A DNA stretch of 64,000 bases from IMG/VR virus record IMGVR_UViG_3300021962_000097, positions 788-64,787 of that record. One strand, given 5' to 3'. Below, piece by piece: positions 21,213 through 37,709 of the stretch. This DNA is from a virus (Duplodnaviria > Caudoviricetes). The stretch's first letter is position 1. Each line of letters begins with the position of its first letter. Position numbers and translations under genes: made by a program. The notes beneath the pieces are model-generated. The model had not been told where the DNA came from. It saw only the letters and a list, made by a program, of their open reading frames with translations, and searched no databases.

Positions 21213-22037
21213 ATGACTAAAGTCAATTACTTAAACAATAAAGATATATTAGAAGAAATACACCGCTCAAAAAATACGTATTCAAGCTATACAAAGCCAG
21301 AATACAGTCGCTACGATCTTATACTGCCCAGTGTAGATAAGATCAATATACGTACTATAGCGGAAGCAAAACGAGCAAGAGCCAAACGACTTGGACATCA
21401 AGAGTATGATCGAAGAAAATCTGCTGGCGAGAAAGTCAAACAAGCAGACTGCGAAGTTGACTATAAGAAGATTGCCAAAACAGACGTTGTGTTTAGAATT
21501 ATGACCTTTGATCATATACCATTAAACAATGTTAGAAAGCGTAATCCAAAGACCGTAGCAGACGGGCGTGATAAAGTTAACTTTCCTCCATACCAACATT
21601 GGAAATTTAATGAAGAAGATGAGCTAGTTTGTGTGGGTAAAAGTCATTGGAAGGGCGATGTTGACACAGGATCTTTTAATAAAGACCACGGTCAGATAAC
21701 AAATACTCTAGCACGTATGTTTATCAAACTCTGCGAACGCTATGCTACCCGAGGTAATGTTAGAGGCTACACCTATAATGATGAAATGCGGGGACAGGCT
21801 ATTCTACAGTTAACACAGATCGGTCTACAATTTGATGAATCAAAGTCAGATAACCCGTTTGCCTACTACACTGCGGCAGTTACTAACAGTTTTGTAAGAA
21901 TTATTAACATAGAAAAACGTAATCAAGGCATTAGAGACGACATATTAGAAATTAACGGTATGAATCCTAGCTACTCTAGAACTAACAGTGGAGAGTACGA
22001 AGCTGGTCTAAGTAGATTTAACGAAGGTACTGAATGA
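21213..22037 (+). CDS. gp55: Late-transcription sigma factor, gp55-like
   Basis: NYLNNKDIL N-terminus; YTYNDEM..FDESKSDNPFAYYT..NSF.RII..EK C-terminal motif; upstream of gp47/gp46 as in T4-like phages. Confidence 0.85.
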   Translation: MTKVNYLNNKDILEEIHRSKNTYSSYTKPEYSRYDLILPSVDKINIRTIAEAKRARAKRLGHQEYDRRKSAGEKVKQADCEVDYKKIAKTDVVFRIMTFDHIPLNNVRKRNPKTVADGRDKVNFPPYQHWKFNEEDELVCVGKSHWKGDVDTGSFNKDHGQITNTLARMFIKLCERYATRGNVRGYTYNDEMRGQAILQLTQIGLQFDESKSDNPFAYYTAAVTNSFVRIINIEKRNQGIRDDILEINGMNPSYSRTNSGEYEAGLSRFNEGTE

Positions 22038-23044
22038 GTTTATTTAAAAAAATTGCCTGTTTTACAGACATACACTTTGGTCTTAAAAGTAATAGCCATA
22101 CACACAATCAAGATTGTTTAGATTTTGTTGATTGGTACATAGCAAAAGCTAAAGATGAAGGTTGTGACACTGGAATTTTTATGGGCGATTGGCATCACAA
22201 TCGAAATAGTCTTAATATCACTACTATGGACTATAGCCTTAGGGCTTTGGAAAAGCTAGGTAAGGCGTTTGATCAATTTTATTTTTTTCCTGGCAATCAT
22301 GATTTATACTATAAAGACAAACGTGATATTCATTCAGTTGAGTTTGGCAAATATATTCCCGGTGTTACTGTTGTTCACGAACCTACAACGATGGGCGATG
22401 TTCTACTTTGTCCGTGGCTAGTAGGGGATGAATGGCGCAAAGTAGAAAAGTCAAAGGCAAGATATTGCTTTGGACACTTTGAATTGCCCTTGTTCTATAT
22501 GAATGCCATGGTACAAATGCCAGATCACGGTGAAATACAGCTCAAACATTTTAAAAACTTTGAGCTAGGCTTTAGTGGGCACTTCCATAAACGCCAGCAA
22601 AGAGAAAATGTTATCTATATTGGTAATGCTTTTCCGCACAACTATGCAGATGCATGGGACGACGAACGTGGCATGATGATATTAGAGTGGGGCAAGCAGC
22701 CAGAATATCACACATGGGATGACCAGCCCAAGTTTAGAACTATTAAACTTAGCGAACTGATCGATGGTGCAGATAAAGTAATCAAATCTAAAATGCACTT
22801 TAGAGTAACCTTAGACATTGACATTAGCTACGAAGAAGCAAGTTTTATCAAAGAAACTTTTATGAAAGACTATGATATTCGTGAATTGACTCTAGTTCCT
22901 GCAAAGAAAGATGTCGAAGTTAACACTAATATTGACATACAAGCCTTTGAAAGCGTCGACGAAATTGTTAGTAAACAGATTATTAACATACAAAGTGAAC
23001 AATTTAAAGCCAATACACTATTGGCAATTTACAATAGCCTATGA
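22034..23044 (+). CDS. gp47: Recombination endonuclease subunit, gp47/Mre11/SbcD-like
   Basis: Metallophosphoesterase motifs TDIHFG, GDWHH, GNHD, GHFE, SGHFH; ATGA overlap with gp55. Confidence 0.93.
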   Translation: MSLFKKIACFTDIHFGLKSNSHTHNQDCLDFVDWYIAKAKDEGCDTGIFMGDWHHNRNSLNITTMDYSLRALEKLGKAFDQFYFFPGNHDLYYKDKRDIHSVEFGKYIPGVTVVHEPTTMGDVLLCPWLVGDEWRKVEKSKARYCFGHFELPLFYMNAMVQMPDHGEIQLKHFKNFELGFSGHFHKRQQRENVIYIGNAFPHNYADAWDDERGMMILEWGKQPEYHTWDDQPKFRTIKLSELIDGADKVIKSKMHFRVTLDIDISYEEASFIKETFMKDYDIRELTLVPAKKDVEVNTNIDIQAFESVDEIVSKQIINIQSEQFKANTLLAIYNSL

Positions 23045-24831
23045 TTCGCATTAAAGATTTAACCGTAAAGAACTTTATGAGTGTGGGTAACCAGACTCAA
23101 GCAGTGAACTTTTGTCGAGAACAGATGACTCTTGTACTAGGTGAGAACTTAGATCAGGGTGGAGACGACAGCGGAAGCCGCAACGGTACAGGTAAAACTA
23201 CAATTATCAATGCTTTGAGCTTTGCACTCTTTGGTCAAGCGTTAACTAACATCAAAAAAGATAACTTGATCAATAAGATCAACGTTAAAAATATGTTGGT
23301 CACGCTGACATTTGAAAAAGACGGACAAGAATATCGTATTGAACGTGGCCGCAAGCCCAATGTTCTAAGATTTTTTGTCAACGATCAAGAACAGGCCAAC
23401 GAAGAAACAGATGATGCACAGGGCGACATGCGAGAAACACAAAAGGATCTTGATGATATCCTAGGCATGAGCCACGACATGTTCAAACACGTTGTTGCAT
23501 TAAACACCTATACAGAACCGTTTTTATCTATGAAGGCGGGAGAACAGCGTGAAATTATTGAACAGTTACTGGGCATTACTCTACTTTCAGAGAAGGCAGA
23601 AGCTCTTAAAGAACTTATTCGCATCACTAAAGACGATATAATTCAAGAAACTGCTCAGATAGAAGCTACAAAAAAAGCCAACGAAAAAATTGAAGAAGGT
23701 ATTGCAGGATTAAAACGCAGACAAGACATGTGGTTGAAGAAACGCCAGGAAGATGTTGAGGCTCTAGCTCTACAGTGGTCTGAATTAAATCAATTAGATA
23801 TTATTGCAGAACTACAAGCGCATAAAGACTTAACTGAGTATAATCAAAAGCGTAAAGCCATTGACGAACTTAACAAACTTATTGCTCGCTGTGTTGCAGA
23901 CGAAGCAAAAGAAACTAAACAAATTGAAAAATTAAAGAAAGAGATTGCAGAATTAGAAAATCATAAATGCTATGCCTGCGGTCAAGACATGCATGATGCA
24001 AAGCACGAGCAAGTGCTAGCAGAAAAGCAAACAGCATTGCGAGAAGCAGCACTACAGGCGTTGGCCACTAACGGTCAGTGGATGGAGAATACAGATGCGC
24101 TTAATGCTCTAGGAGAACTAGGTGTTCAACCTACAGTGTTTTACAGTCGTGAAGAAGATGCTATCAATCATAGAAATACAATTCAAAATCTCGAACAACA
24201 GATAACTGCTAGAGAATCAGATCAAGATCCTTATCAAGAGCAAATTGATGAACTAAGTGAAACTGCTCTACAAGAAATTAGTTGGGATAAGGTAAATGAT
24301 TTGAATGATCTTAAAGAGCATCAAGAATTTCTGTTAAAATTGCTGACCAGCAAAGACAGTTTTATCCGTAAAAAAATTATTGATCAGAATTTGGCCTACT
24401 TAAACAATAGGCTGACTTACTATCTTGACAAAATGGGACTACCGCACACTGTAACATTCCTAAATGATCTTACTGTAGAAATTACACAGCTTGGACAAGA
24501 TTTAGACTTTGACAACTTGTCACGCGGTGAACGTAATCGTTTGATTCTAGGACTAAGCTGGAGTTTCCGTGATGTATGGGAAAGTCTATATCAAAATATT
24601 AATTTGTTGTTTATTGATGAGCTTATTGACAACGGTTTAGATGCCAGTGGCGTTGAAAGTGCATTGGCTGTACTAAAGAAAATGGCACGTGAACGCAACA
24701 AAAACATATATTTGATCAGTCACAAAGATGAATTAATTGGTAGAGTAAACAACGTTCTTAAAGTAATTAAAGAAAACGGGTTTACTAGTTATGATAACGA
24801 CCTTGAAGTATTAGATGAGCAGCAAGCATGA
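23041..24831 (+). CDS. gp46: Recombination ATPase subunit, gp46/Rad50/SbcC-like
   Basis: KNFMSVGN, Walker A NGTGKTT, coiled coil with CYAC zinc hook, signature LSRGE, Walker B LFIDE, ISH. Confidence 0.95.
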   Translation: MIRIKDLTVKNFMSVGNQTQAVNFCREQMTLVLGENLDQGGDDSGSRNGTGKTTIINALSFALFGQALTNIKKDNLINKINVKNMLVTLTFEKDGQEYRIERGRKPNVLRFFVNDQEQANEETDDAQGDMRETQKDLDDILGMSHDMFKHVVALNTYTEPFLSMKAGEQREIIEQLLGITLLSEKAEALKELIRITKDDIIQETAQIEATKKANEKIEEGIAGLKRRQDMWLKKRQEDVEALALQWSELNQLDIIAELQAHKDLTEYNQKRKAIDELNKLIARCVADEAKETKQIEKLKKEIAELENHKCYACGQDMHDAKHEQVLAEKQTALREAALQALATNGQWMENTDALNALGELGVQPTVFYSREEDAINHRNTIQNLEQQITARESDQDPYQEQIDELSETALQEISWDKVNDLNDLKEHQEFLLKLLTSKDSFIRKKIIDQNLAYLNNRLTYYLDKMGLPHTVTFLNDLTVEITQLGQDLDFDNLSRGERNRLILGLSWSFRDVWESLYQNINLLFIDELIDNGLDASGVESALAVLKKMARERNKNIYLISHKDELIGRVNNVLKVIKENGFTSYDNDLEVLDEQQA

Positions 24832-25069
24832 TGATATAATGAGTGCGTTTCGAACTTATTTCGAAGCAAACCAAAAGTGGGAAGTAGAAAGGACCAAACG
24901 GTCTTCTATACAACTACGGCAAAGTCTAAGTAGAATTAGAGAACTATGCTCAGATCAGCGTGTAATTGTACGTGAGTGGGCAAGGATTAAAGAGGCAGAA
25001 CTAGCAGAAAAAGAAGCAAGAAGACAGGCTCAAAAGAGGCAGAAGACGGAAGGCAGCAATGATAACTAA
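24815..25069 (+). CDS. Small basic helical protein, possibly Hc1 (histone H1-like)-related
   Basis: 84 aa, Arg/Lys-rich; ENxKW/F..K.S..xRxxL..I..L....R pattern recalls phage Hc1-like proteins; overlaps the gp46 end by 17 nt. Confidence 0.5.
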   Translation: MSSKHDDIMSAFRTYFEANQKWEVERTKRSSIQLRQSLSRIRELCSDQRVIVREWARIKEAELAEKEARRQAQKRQKTEGSNDN

Positions 25070-25074
25070 GTGCC

Positions 25075-25500
25075 ATGACATGGTACTTCCAAAATGAAAT
25101 CGTTGAATCGCTGCCCGAAGATTGCGTTGGGTTTGTATATCTAATTACAAATCTTACCACAGGCAGAAAATATATAGGCAAAAAATTAGCCAAATTTAGT
25201 AAAACAACATATAAAACAGTAAAATTAAAAAACGGAAGTAAAAAGAAAAAGAAAATTCGAAGCAAAATTGACTCCGATTGGAGAGATTATTACGGTTCGA
25301 ATATAGAATTAAGCAAAGACATAGAGACACTAGGCAAAGAAAATTTCAAACGAGAGATAATGTTTTACTGTAAAAGTAAAGCAGAATGTTCTTACATAGA
25401 GGCCAGAGAACAATTTACACACAAAGTTCTAGAATCAAAAGATTACTATAACGGACAGATCTCAGTCCGTGTACATGGCTCACATATATTAAAATCATAG
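25075..25500 (+). CDS. Stand-alone GIY-YIG endonuclease-family protein
   Basis: GFVYLITN..GRKYIGKK, DWRDYYGS, FKREI, E in YIEAREQ, YYNGQI; 141 aa with a poly-Lys insert. Confidence 0.88.
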   Translation: MTWYFQNEIVESLPEDCVGFVYLITNLTTGRKYIGKKLAKFSKTTYKTVKLKNGSKKKKKIRSKIDSDWRDYYGSNIELSKDIETLGKENFKREIMFYCKSKAECSYIEAREQFTHKVLESKDYYNGQISVRVHGSHILKS

Positions 25501-25935
25501 GCTCATAAGCGGTATAAGCAAGCACAAGCTAAAGTCGTGTGCCCACGCCAACTCGATAATAAGAGGGACGGAAATCTCTAGCCGCCAGAGTACTCAACCA
25601 CTACCCGAAAGGATGAGGATAGCAAAGCCCTTGCTGTTTGGTTGTTTTAGAATAATAGGCGAAATGAGGGAGAAAAACCCACGTTTACTGGCATGTTAGC
25701 GTATGCAAGTAGACCGCCGTCGTAATAAAGACTCTGCTCGTGGTACCGGACGACCGCCACTGTAATGCAGTAACGCTAGGTGACACATGTTCGACTCGGA
25801 TAATGTACACTTCTTTGCCCGGCCTGGGCAAAGTGTGACTGAACGATCTGGATAATATATTAAGTGCTTCGCACAATTACTTCTAGAAAAAAGCATTGAG
25901 CGTAGCGAAATGCAAGTGAGCTCTAGCTCACTTTT
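25501..25935 (+). ncRNA. Candidate large structured non-coding element (RNA or ssDNA), family unknown
   Basis: Longest non-coding gap in the window; 173/360 GC (48%) over 25501-25860 by hand count; more than 10 predicted helices, multi-way junctions and two possible pseudoknots; ends in a terminator-like hairpin. Confidence 0.65.
25914..25935 (+). terminator. Hairpin / probable intrinsic terminator
   Basis: AAGTGAGC-TCTA-GCTCACTT perfect stem running into TTTT. Confidence 0.6.
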
Positions 25936-25937
25936 AA

Positions 25938-25943
25938 TAAATA
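25938..25943 (+). promoter_or_regulatory. Putative late promoter TAAATA
   Basis: AATAAATA just after the terminator, 20 nt before ATG 25964. Confidence 0.55.
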
Positions 25944-25963
25944 GATTATTATTCAATGATCTT

Positions 25964-26893
25964 ATGAAATTTAAAGAAATTATCTCAGAAGCTAATAGAC
26001 AAGGAAGTGGTCTATTAGGTCCGATGGTTACAACTCCTTCTGGTATACAGATACCTATGTGGCCTAGTGCCAGTTTATCTGCTAGGTCAAGTCCTCCTCC
26101 TGCACCTAAGACAAAGACCGGTGGTGAAAAACTCACGCAGTACTCTAAGATACTTGGTAAAAAAGGTCTTAGAATATTGGGCAGCGATAGATATCGCCCT
26201 TATCTTACCAGTAAGAGCGACGCAATAAAAAATGGTGCAAGATTTCTAAGAATATGGCAATTTCTTGGCTTTGGGGAAATGCTGTTAGATTTCTTCAATA
26301 CCAAGGCAACCTTAGAAATAATGAAAGGCCTTCCAAACAACGATCCCAGTTATATCACTGAAGAAGAATATGATACTAATGTTAGACAAGCTGGAGAAAT
26401 ACTAGCCTTACAAATACTAGCCAGTGAAGCATTTCCTAGACTATTACAGGCTATGAGCTTAGGTAAATGGATAGTAAGGATCATAGGGTTTTTTGGTACA
26501 GCAGCTAGTTGGGGCGCAACACTTGCACTTTTTGTAGCTTCTGAAGTGGCTATGATAGCGTTTCAAAGGTGGTTAATGAGCCCTGAGGGTAAAAAAGCTC
26601 TAAGTTATTTGGTAGTCTACTGTGTAGATCCCTTGCTTACTTGGATGTATCCTACAAGTTTAATCAACAAGATCAAAGAGCTAGTGGGCATGGAACAGGA
26701 TAAAAAGCCAGACGAAACAAAGCCTGATGATGGCAACAAACCTTCTACAAATTCAAATCAAGCTGCACAACCCGACACCGGTGCAAGAACAGATACTACT
26801 ATAAGAACACCAAATGTACCTTCTAGCTATCAAGGTAATCCTAACGATCTAATGACGAAGCCACCTAAAAAAGAGCCTTTGCCCTTTAGTTAA
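25964..26893 (+). CDS. Hypothetical protein with hydrophobic helices; possible head-internal/ejected protein
   Basis: Start moved from 25910 (inside the terminator) to MKFKEIISEA at 25964; hydrophobic segment WIVRIIGFFGTAASWGATLALFVASEVAMIAF; Pro/Thr-rich tail. Confidence 0.7.
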   Translation: MKFKEIISEANRQGSGLLGPMVTTPSGIQIPMWPSASLSARSSPPPAPKTKTGGEKLTQYSKILGKKGLRILGSDRYRPYLTSKSDAIKNGARFLRIWQFLGFGEMLLDFFNTKATLEIMKGLPNNDPSYITEEEYDTNVRQAGEILALQILASEAFPRLLQAMSLGKWIVRIIGFFGTAASWGATLALFVASEVAMIAFQRWLMSPEGKKALSYLVVYCVDPLLTWMYPTSLINKIKELVGMEQDKKPDETKPDDGNKPSTNSNQAAQPDTGARTDTTIRTPNVPSSYQGNPNDLMTKPPKKEPLPFS

Positions 26894-36613: not shown

Positions 36614-36704
36614 TAAATACATTGTACGACTTACATTCCGTAAGTTTTATGCGGAAATCCGACCGCGTACGGCCTAGAACGCCGCTTTTCAAGGAGAAAA
36701 TAAA
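36614..36704 (+). promoter_or_regulatory. Late promoter (TAAATA 36614-36619) plus structured 5' leader
   Basis: Hairpins CTTAC/GTAAG, TATGCGG/CCGCGTA and CGGC/GCCG precede the AAGGAG RBS. Confidence 0.6.
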
Positions 36705-37709
36705 ATGGGACGTCCTCTAAACAAAAAATATTTTGGTAACCGAAATTTTGGTCGTGCAGGCGATCAAACAGCTGGCCCTAATTCAAACAGTCAAAACTAT
36801 GCAGATGATAACATCGGCGGCGAAGGTATCTCTTCTTATATACTACCAGGCCAACTAGGTAATATTGAAGTCGATAGTGATAGCGGTCAACCAGATCTAG
36901 TAATACCAGCACCTCAAATCCCAGGCGGCGTACAAGCCACTGCTACAGTAACTTGGGAAGTTTCTACTATTACAATTACTGATACTAACGACTACGGCAC
37001 AGGATATGTTAATGGTGAAACTGTGACATTTACAGGCCCAACAGGAGTTACTGCTACAGTAACCGTTGCTTCAGATGATATTACTGGTTTTACTATTGTT
37101 AATCGCGGTAGTTTTACAACTCTTCCAACAGGCGGATCATATCAAGTAGTCGGAGCAGTAGGTAATGATGCACAAGCAGAAATTACATGGCGTGTTAAGA
37201 CCATTGTTATGAATGAAAAAGGTTCAGGCTATACAACTGCTCCAACACTAAGCTGGGCGGCTGGCGAAGCAGGTCCTATCTCTGGCACAAGTCCAGGAGC
37301 ACCAACTGCTGTACTATCTACTGATTCAGGTATTATCGGCTCAGCAACTAATCAAGAAAACGCAATCATCATCCATGCTAACACAGGTAATGAAGGCGAT
37401 CAAATTGGAGACATTATTCGTCAAGTATCAACTCGCCGTTATAAAGTTAAAACAGCAGACGGTATTAGAATTTGTCAACTAACAGACGACGATACACCAG
37501 GCGTAGGATATGCCTACATTCAAGCTACAGATGACAACGGTAATACATACTTTGTTATGAAGTTGACATCAAAACTTGCTGTTCTTAAACAATGGACTAA
37601 TAACGAAGCTGAATGGCTATTTGCAGACAATGAAAGAGCACACTGGGTATTTTCAGATACTGAAAATTCATACAGCGCAGCTGATACAGTTGTAATTGAA
37701 AACGCTTAA
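36705..37709 (+). CDS. Virion structural protein (hypothetical)
   Basis: MGRPLNKKYFG start; Gly/Thr beta-rich with GSGYTTAP repeats; strong RBS. Confidence 0.75.
   Translation: MGRPLNKKYFGNRNFGRAGDQTAGPNSNSQNYADDNIGGEGISSYILPGQLGNIEVDSDSGQPDLVIPAPQIPGGVQATATVTWEVSTITITDTNDYGTGYVNGETVTFTGPTGVTATVTVASDDITGFTIVNRGSFTTLPTGGSYQVVGAVGNDAQAEITWRVKTIVMNEKGSGYTTAPTLSWAAGEAGPISGTSPGAPTAVLSTDSGIIGSATNQENAIIIHANTGNEGDQIGDIIRQVSTRRYKVKTADGIRICQLTDDDTPGVGYAYIQATDDNGNTYFVMKLTSKLAVLKQWTNNEAEWLFADNERAHWVFSDTENSYSAADTVVIENA

Follow-up and report, generated by a model that had tools for sequence, protein, structure and literature searches.

The window analysed here is the 64,000-nucleotide stretch at positions 788 to 64,787 of the IMG/VR virus record IMGVR_UViG_3300021962_000097, from a tailed phage of the Caudoviricetes. 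It carries a same-strand gene block whose conserved upstream part consists of a gp47-like and a gp46-like gene, named after their phage T4 counterparts, followed by a gene for a small stand-alone GIY-YIG nuclease and, 8 nt past the stop codon of the latter, by a structured non-coding RNA (Table 1). An earlier note on this DNA had proposed that nuclease and RNA form a single system, possibly an RNA-guided GIY-YIG. The best explanation, to which we assign a probability of roughly 0.7, is instead that they are two separate features in a shared, conserved gene order: an autonomous structured RNA and an independent nuclease.

A large RNA with a conserved, pseudoknotted fold

Conservation among relatives spans positions 25505 to 25935, and the RNA occurs in one copy per phage record. 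The GC content of 25501-25935 is 46.7% (the earlier note had counted 48% by hand), compared with 38.2% for the whole window and 32.2% for the nuclease open reading frame (ORF). No reading frame is kept open in the element: in 64 of 81 unique relatives, 385 nt contain no stop-free run of 80 codons or more. A large phage RNA, the other possibility raised in the earlier note, is thus borne out as a multi-pseudoknotted molecule with covariation and no conserved frame.

The evidence for the fold is comparative, because the fold of the single sequence is not exceptional (z -1.28). A structure of 17 helices was evaluated on an alignment of 83 distinct rows (A1), where 91.5% of the cells pair, compared with 77.3% in shuffled alignments. 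Covariation, the check suggested in the earlier note, is pronounced: 61 of the 86 pairs have changed on both sides, and the covariation score of 0.400 (0.157 in shuffles, at most 0.083 with slid partners) is reached by none of 500 shuffles.

Three pseudoknots are part of this structure. In the 5' pseudoknot, pair 25509-25585 alternates between A-T (40 of 78 rows) and G-C (28), and pair 25511-25583 between G-C (68) and A-T (7); the position of this pseudoknot places the 5' end of the RNA at or before 25509, upstream of the boundary set in Rfam. Six of the seven pairs of pseudoknot 1 show double changes, with 96.6% of cells pairing and Watson-Crick fractions of 0.96-1.00 for the pairs picked out by mutual information. 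Both had been predicted in the earlier note. Pseudoknot 2 is an addition to them; 97.8% of its cells pair, with 25721-25752 being C-G in 43 and U-A in 39 rows, and 25722-25751 G-C in 50 and A-U in 30.

Most of the predicted helices were likewise supported in A1, namely GCACA/TGTGC, CTCT/AGAG, CAACCA/TGGTTG, ATAGCA/TGCTGT, GGC/GCC, GGG/CCC, CTGC/GCAG, GTGG/CCAC, the 11-bp hairpin TTTACTGGCAT/ATGCAAGTAGA, in which all 11 pairs have changed on both sides, and CTTTGCCC/GGGCAAAG, where four of eight pairs show double changes and 78.7% are paired in a region in which the alignment register slips. The invariant CC-GAAA-GG is uninformative for covariation. Two proposed helices fell away: the bases assigned to a CGG-ACGA-CCG hairpin form pseudoknot 2 instead, and GTTCG/TGAAC is paired in only 62%. 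Together with an R1:R2 helix suggested by RNAalifold (25796-801/25846-851), CGG/CCG and GTTCG/TGAAC score 0.104, against 0.099 in shuffles (126 of 500 as high), and these three were rejected. Towards the 3' end, the inner GC/GC pairs of the tandem-G-A hairpin are 96.9% paired, with double changes, and for its outer GCATT/AATGC helix register slips in A1 lower the value to 53%; the GAGCG..GCGAA motif occurs in 66 of 81 unique relatives. The hairpin placed at 25914 as a terminator in the earlier note is conserved, a hairpin of at least 6 bp lying within 45 nt past the GAGC..GCGAA motif in 63 of 81 unique relatives, and was not listed by the consensus scan.

Two natural variants were seen in the alignment. 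In locus L084, ~49 nt that include a tandem TATAGTCAAC repeat are inserted into the loop region past GTGG/CCAC (A1 columns 341-388), and L042 lacks the segment equivalent to ~25705-25826 (A1 columns ~264-466). Such variants could show which parts of the RNA are dispensable.

Table 1. Genes and RNA features at the locus, in window coordinates
Feature	Position	Strand	Basis or remark
gp47-like gene, Mre11-type phosphoesterase	22034-23044	+	Pfam Metallophos
gp46-like gene, Rad50/SMC-type ATPase	23041-24831	+	Pfam AAA_23, SMC_N, Rad50 zinc hook
84-aa ORF between gp46 and nuclease	24815..25069	+	ORF list; tblastn match in 14/118 loci
Stand-alone Seg-type GIY-YIG nuclease gene	25075..25500	+	141 aa: catalytic domain and basic beta-hairpin insert, no DNA-binding tail
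Whole non-coding RNA, ~425 nt, 5' pseudoknot strand to terminal hairpin and T run	25508..25933	+	end-to-end conservation, covariation
5' pseudoknot: GCGGT 25509-25513 / GCCGC 25581-25585 (CTCT/AGAG hairpin loop)	25509..25585	+	covariation
5' domain (RF01718): GCACA/TGTGC, CTCT/AGAG, CAACCA/TGGTTG, CC-GAAA-GG, GATAGC/GCTGT	25517..25647	+	cmscan; covariation helices 1-6
Central domain, first half: GGC/GCC closing helix, GGG/CCC hairpin (25669-25680), 11-bp hairpin (25684-25694/25703-25713)	25658..25718	+	covariation helices 7-9
Pseudoknot 1: loop TTAGCGT 25696-25702 / ACGCTAG 25773-25779	25696..25779	+	covariation
Pseudoknot 2: GTCGT 25719-25723 / ACGAC 25750-25754, within GTGG/CCAC hairpin loop	25719..25754	+	covariation
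CTGC/GCAG helix (25734-37/25767-70) around GTGG/CCAC (25740-43/25757-60)	25734..25770	+	double changes in 4/4 and 2/4 pairs
Repeat R1, G ACTC GG ATAAT, 13 nt	25793..25805	+	concerted change with R2
Hairpin CTTTGCCC/GGGCAAAG between R1 and R2	25813..25833	+	covariation helix 14
Repeat R2, G ATCT GG ATAAT, 13 nt	25845..25857	+	47-58 nt after R1 in 79/80 unique relatives
Small hairpin GTGC-TTC-GCAC	25864..25874	+	double changes in 4/4 pairs
Hairpin GCATT/AATGC around GAGCG-TA-GCGAA (tandem G-A motif, GC/GC stem)	25893..25913	+	covariation helices 16, 17
Terminal hairpin AGTGAGC-TCTA-GCTCACT (25915-25932), then T's	25915..25935	+	likely transcript end
Downstream ORF, ~309 aa	25964..26893	+	fast-evolving; tblastn match in only 3/118 loci

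A probable full-length form of Polynucleobacter-1

The earlier note did not recognise the element. For two thirds of its length this holds, as an Rfam scan of 25400-26000 at E <= 10 gave a single family; the 5' third, however, is a clear match to that family, RF01718 (Polynucleobacter-1), an outcome that the note had itself named as speaking against an undescribed system. The match covers 25517-25647 and the entire model (1-141 of 141) with 80.9 bits by cmscan, the cut-off being 37 (E 1.4e-15). Five RF01718 helices are present and covary in our alignment. In the window, deletions and two non-canonical pairs affect the second hairpin of the model; in the covariation alignment of relatives it is 93.4% paired and intact in most.

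As part of the explanation favoured above, and with the same confidence as the whole, we take RF01718 to model only the 5' third of a longer RNA, of which the molecule described here is the full-length form. Outside the Rfam model lie the strand at 25509-13 that forms the 5' pseudoknot, the whole central domain and its two pseudoknots, both direct repeats (R1 and R2) and, further 3', the tandem-G-A and terminal hairpins. In the motif table of Weinberg et al. (Genome Biol 2010;11:R31), Polynucleobacter-1 appears as a likely RNA and likely cis-regulator from Burkholderiales and from fresh water and estuaries. The taxa and habitats found here agree with that entry, the sequencing runs that hold the window being labelled freshwater, estuary, aquatic, marine or aquaculture. 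The 141-nt candidate cis-regulator that Rfam has listed since 2010 would form just the 5' domain of a much larger RNA, and the corrected boundary and structure allow a proper RNA model to be built.

Distribution and expression in phages

A search with a conserved-core pattern returned at least 118 IMG/VR stretches; counts on these loci refer to the matches listed. By blastn, 105 of the 118 align to both the Rfam part and 25648-25940 of the window, and the 40 strongest matches to the latter segment are 76-100% identical over ~190-300 nt. Among the other 13, cmscan of 11 found RF01718 in seven and nothing in four, which are chance matches; L059 and L066, outside the cmscan set, have the same flanks as L055. 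The full RNA is thus present in about 114 contigs of T4-like phages among the matches listed, always after gp47/gp46-like genes, and tblastn detects gp46 in 100 of the 118 loci and gp47 in 76, each a fixed distance ahead of the RNA. No match was obtained by blastn of the RNA against 50,697 deposited phage records. The window's own record (64.8 kb) is rated 18% complete; two large RNA-bearing records of 345 and 400 kb have estimated completeness of 94-100%. The carriers are a clade of T4-like freshwater phages with near-complete members of 345-400 kb.

Metatranscriptome contigs of relatives from four runs in four studies span the junction of the nuclease ORF and the RNA (equivalent to 25329-25603, 25338-25630, 25165-25604 and 25454-25712). 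They fit co-transcription of the two, as far as contigs can, which show neither the ends, the strand nor the level of a transcript. In most runs the contigs from RNA libraries stop short of the part of the RNA 3' of ~25790, which is not evidence of its absence.

The GIY-YIG nuclease is separable from the RNA

The protein encoded upstream of the RNA matches the full length of the Pfam profile SegE_GIY-YIG (PF19835, profile 1-123 of 123, E 1.9e-33) and also phrog_447 (E 8.8e-38). The AlphaFold model is a single domain (pLDDT 91.3) in which the basic residues 40-66 form a beta-hairpin, in keeping with the earlier description of a 141-aa catalytic domain with a basic insert and nothing further. 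G19, V21 and Y22 (GIY), Y33 and G35 (YIG), R93, E94, E109 and N126 are invariant across 29 homologues; which of these are probably catalytic is judged by comparison with I-TevI. The catalytic domain of I-TevI (1ln0_B) is also the best meaningful Foldseek neighbour of the model (probability 0.93, E 0.12); Foldseek returned nothing at E <= 0.001, and a sequence search of the PDB gave no relevant match.

Relatives are encoded by at least 597 viral contigs and by 532 deposited phage records, all of the latter below 60% identity and mostly labelled 'NAD synthetase' (e.g. NC_020875.1 150222-150656 and NC_027204.1 162711-163124). That GenBank label finds no support in the domain content, which is GIY-YIG only. 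In phage S-SSM4 the stand-alone GIY-YIG gene adjoins a tRNA-Arg gene. Within shared loci the nuclease is better conserved than gp46 (84% vs 66% in L005, 80% vs 60% in L014). As the other half of the explanation favoured here, and at the same confidence, the protein is probably a DNA nuclease of T4-like phages (PHROG 447) that is strongly conserved and passed on vertically.

In 100 of 114 loci the ORF just upstream of the RNA is a GIY-YIG gene, and two truncated ones were recognised by their C-termini, giving 102 of 113 informative loci. Nine others hold a PDDEXK_15 protein (PF24608; PHROG 244, 'RusA-like Holliday junction resolvase') and two hold unrelated ORFs, so that the slot is filled by a nuclease of some kind in 111 of 113. 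The PDDEXK_15 protein has 172 aa at L003:3963-4484 (+), with equivalents in L055-type loci and in L076, and may represent a non-orthologous swap of the DNA-structure nuclease that follows gp46.

The nuclease also occurs without the RNA. The best 80 of the at least 597 relatives include 74 with at least 200 nt downstream, and the RNA follows in 61 of these, at a median of 19 nt past the ORF. In the remaining 13, which encode nucleases 73-84% identical, neither nhmmer nor cmscan found the RNA downstream; 11 of them have 1.5 kb of downstream sequence, and in 10 of those a membrane-like ORF of 287-383 aa abuts the nuclease gene. A complete phage genome of 161,882 bp with terminal repeats encodes a 77%-identical nuclease and has no RF01718 anywhere. 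The covariance model likewise found the RNA neither locally nor genome-wide in any of four cultured, nuclease-encoding phages (Melnitz-3, ACP17, S-SSM4 and phiM12), and the nuclease also occurs in other genomic contexts at ~80% identity. At the gp46-linked locus L227:1920-2675, the GIY-YIG gene is followed by a 93-aa ORF and a ~470-nt gap free of RF01718 matches, which may reflect loss or replacement of the RNA. Conversely, RNA copies in 11 phage loci and in bacteria are not accompanied by this nuclease. The RNA is independent of the nuclease, the two being separable in both directions.

These observations bear directly on the earlier proposal, for which homologous nucleases lacking the element had been named as contrary evidence. 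A ribonucleoprotein in which the RNA binds the adjacent GIY-YIG protein and guides, scaffolds or inhibits it, for instance in the manner of an RNA antitoxin, could draw on the tight adjacency within the clade (102 of 113 and 61 of 74 loci), on the near-constant presence of some nuclease in the slot (111 of 113) and on a nuclease that has a basic hairpin and no DNA-binding domain. It is, in our view, highly improbable, given the closely related nucleases that lack the RNA, one of them in a complete genome, the 532 nuclease-encoding phage records in none of which blastn detects the RNA, two unrelated nuclease folds in the same slot, and bacterial copies with no nuclease beside them. Nor was a guide found: the variable segments (linker 25874-93, 25803-24 into the inter-repeat hairpin, and loop 25622-36) have no match elsewhere in the window at up to 3 substitutions save one 15-mer with 3 mismatches, compatible with chance, and complements of the repeats are not enriched. 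The idea of a GIY-YIG nuclease with a guide RNA is unsupported, and the 'NAD synthetase'-labelled protein is better seen as a widespread stand-alone GIY-YIG of T4-like phages.

The alternation of two unrelated nuclease families at an identical position beside a highly conserved sequence, together with PHROG relatives of the GIY-YIG protein annotated as homing endonucleases, would also suit free-standing homing endonucleases (GIY-YIG and PD-(D/E)XK) that settled, without an intron, by a conserved RNA gene holding their cleavage site. We give this very little credence. The distribution is not sporadic, with zero 'empty' sites among 114 loci and the nuclease in 102 of 113; the nuclease outdoes gp46 in conservation; and the protein is one domain of 141 aa with no DNA-recognition domain joined to it, whose relatives located elsewhere are still ~80% identical.

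Twin repeats that change in concert

The 3' part of the RNA holds two direct repeats, R1 and R2. Positions 25798, 25799, 25802 and 25804 of R1 carry the same letter as 25850, 25851, 25854 and 25856 of R2 in all 78 rows, and a tree built from the remaining RNA requires at least 11, 5, 3 and 2 changes at these positions, respectively. The pair is also present in bacterial copies; in 18 of 21 of them, 7-8 of the 8 letters that follow agree between the repeats. In the window's sub-clade, the second hairpin of the 5' domain is degenerate and reads AACTCGATAATA at 25550-25561, a sequence similar to the repeats and two substitutions away from R2.

Several known arrangements of paired motifs were considered and rejected. 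In the gene-60 type of translational bypass, matched codons lie ~50 nt apart around a hairpin; here the spacing is 47-58 nt, and the open codons upstream of R1 have a median of 5-9 in all three frames. In a mini-CRISPR array the 'spacer' would be a conserved covarying hairpin, GGA sites of the CsrA type arise only in the GG state, and a type III toxin-antitoxin (ToxIN-like) does not fit two 13-nt repeats in a large fold, an RNA downstream of the gene and a protein of a GIY-YIG DNA nuclease family. In the P4 CI RNA (seqA/seqC) and the P1/P7 c4 RNA (a1b1/a2b2), one effector sequence pairs with two identical target repeats, and one partner reading both repeats is, to our knowledge, the only ordinary logic that predicts the pattern seen here. 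The likeness lies in two direct repeats kept identical for one reader; unlike in those RNAs, no complementary third sequence was found from -650 to +700 nt or in the genomes searched.

A bolder reading, which we consider unlikely, places the RNA in a new class of large mobile-element RNAs, with R1 and R2 as two matched, re-programmable sites that read an identical short sequence on one lineage-variable partner in trans, and with phages and bacterial islands carrying rival versions to take over or block it in the course of infection. The partner would be a nucleic acid of the host or the phage, or a pair of subunits of the same protein. If true, identical-letter covariation would be the footprint of a previously undescribed RNA specificity switch. 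The concerted change is an unusual constraint, a handle for finding the partner of the RNA, and the best lead at hand.

The repeats could alternatively be equivalent processing or contact sites of a ribozyme or a self-assembling ornate RNA, catalytic or homo-oligomeric, a view that overlaps with the explanation favoured here. Its size, three pseudoknots, many invariant unpaired nucleotides and residence on mobile elements would be in keeping with such a role, and homo-oligomers are reported for GOLLD, ROOL and OLE (as summarised for Nature 2025;643:1135). The RNA resembles no ribozyme or large RNA in Rfam, and we rate this possibility as quite improbable.

Bacterial relatives and the question of cis action

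The strict RNA pattern had no match in 185,579 species genomes, and a relaxed pattern was needed. Among its 37 bacterial genome loci, 27 have the RF01718 domain, mostly in Polynucleobacter, Limnohabitans, Comamonadaceae and Burkholderiaceae, with some metagenome-assembled genomes labelled as other phyla. All five genomes checked carry 1-2 copies, and in one genus 13 of 121 genomes score above the RF01718 cut-off. The bacterial RNAs are long too (~480 nt or more). By eye they share the 5' pseudoknot, apparently kept with other letters (CTACCG/CGGTAG vs CTACTG/CAGTAG), the R1-hairpin-R2 module, the tandem-G-A hairpin with its GAGCG..GCGAA motif, and the terminal hairpin.

The bacterial copies are divergent from an adjoining DUF6641 gene and have no adjacent nuclease. 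They lie in integrative islands of ~8-10 kb, within bacteria that are the likely hosts of the phages. In addition to variable cargo, the islands encode a 424-aa integrase-like protein, a 188-aa tyrosine recombinase, an AAA ATPase and DUF6641 (L167-L170, on bacterial chromosomes G115, G028 and G041, with two islands 18 kb apart on G115). By eye, the cargo of L169 comprises a cytosine methyltransferase-like gene and a partner gene. On a Polynucleobacter chromosome, a 770-aa gene directly downstream of the RNA (L139:86-2398, -) has a GIY...YIG-like motif by eye; it has no Pfam match, part of it being masked. By tblastn, none of the island proteins has a significant relative in the window (best E 0.05), and DUF6641 is in none of the 4-5 phage records checked, so a protein partner shared between phages and islands was rejected.

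These contexts bear on whether the element acts in cis, as a structured 3' untranslated region (UTR) that shields the mRNA of gp47, gp46 and the nuclease against 3' exonucleases, or that sets termination or read-through where gene blocks on the two strands converge, with no function in trans. Its start so close behind the stop codon, its conserved final hairpin, the RNA-library contigs bridging ORF and RNA, the table of Weinberg et al. and an ORF starting just after the RNA at several bacterial loci all speak for such a role. We nevertheless find it distinctly unlikely: protecting an mRNA would require far less than ~425 nt, three pseudoknots and this many invariant unpaired bases, the flanking genes vary among phage, PDDEXK-type phage and bacterial contexts, and the bacterial copies, pointing away from the upstream gene, apparently have a terminal hairpin of their own (by eye). 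The contexts found here do not favour the probable cis-regulatory assignment of the 2010 table.

A proposed model of RNA and nuclease function

An autonomous, trans-acting mobile-element RNA is the most likely identity of the element. Because the phage RNA starts 8 nt after the stop codon, transcription through gp47, gp46 and the nuclease gene would yield it at the 3' end of a common transcript. It would probably be released from, or retained at, this 3' end and persist as a stable folded RNA. In this form it would act in trans on a factor encoded elsewhere, most likely by the host, with R1 and R2 as two equivalent recognition sites for a single partner. The nuclease would not depend on the RNA and would probably serve phage DNA metabolism, as a neighbour of the Mre11/Rad50-type genes.

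Several results weigh against this model. No shared complementary site for R1 and R2 is consistently placed from -650 to +700 nt, only chance-like matches to their complement occur within the 64-kb window at up to 2 substitutions, and in the genomes of four large relatives the complement patterns are about as frequent as a reversed-pattern control. Phage recombination could inflate the number of independent changes in the repeats; it cannot explain the total absence of mixed states. The phage central domain was not found in bacterial copies by nhmmer at E <= 10, and a covariance model, called R1 and distinct from the repeat of that name, detected 0 of 21 bacterial and 0 of 3 L055-type loci, so that the case for homology between phage and bacterial RNAs over their full length is made by the 5' domain and by 3' motifs aligned by eye. 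The metatranscriptome contigs that bridge ORF and RNA come from relatives 88-97% alike and may include DNA. A lineage-specific functional tie between nuclease and RNA, such as control of expression, may also exist, because their adjacency is very tight within the clade (61 of 74 and 102 of 113 loci).

Gene neighbourhood in the window

Neither the 84-aa ORF ahead of the nuclease gene nor the ORF downstream of the RNA belongs to a Pfam or PHROG family. For the latter, 25964 is the likelier start, since the listed ATG at 25910 (327-aa version) sits within the last hairpins of the RNA. The TAACTA at 25063, described as late-promoter-like in the earlier note, coincides with no promoter-like site of a consensus scan. 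A second Rfam match in the window, RF02980 (freshwater-2) at 36629-36707 (+) with 70.9 bits (cut-off 49.9), is probably the 5' leader of the next gene, as the model ends in a Shine-Dalgarno-like AAGGAG and ATG.

Comparison with known systems

Among nucleases, the GIY-YIG protein is closest to the T4 Seg endonucleases. It shares the full SegE_GIY-YIG profile and the invariant catalytic motif residues with SegA-G, and the catalytic domain of I-TevI is its closest meaningful structural neighbour. In contrast to the Seg proteins, it lacks a C-terminal DNA-binding region, has a basic beta-hairpin insert, and is widespread and strongly conserved rather than sporadic.

The OMEGA systems (IscB or TnpB with omegaRNA or reRNA, including HEARO) likewise place a nuclease gene beside a large structured RNA in a mobile genome. 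Here, however, nuclease and RNA occur apart, and there is no guide segment, no RuvC or HNH effector and no transposon end; HEARO itself is in Rfam and does not match the RNA.

The RNA described here can also be compared with GOLLD, ROOL and OLE. Like them, it exceeds 400 nt, is multi-pseudoknotted and resides on phages and mobile elements with no obligatory adjacent protein gene. It matches those Rfam families in neither sequence nor structure, and it is smaller than GOLLD or ROOL. With ~425 nt, three pseudoknots, covariation and no conserved frame, it belongs with the large ornate RNAs as a descriptive class, not a homologous one. With it, the small set of large, complex RNAs of bacteria and phages, whose folds have repaid structural study, gains a further member.

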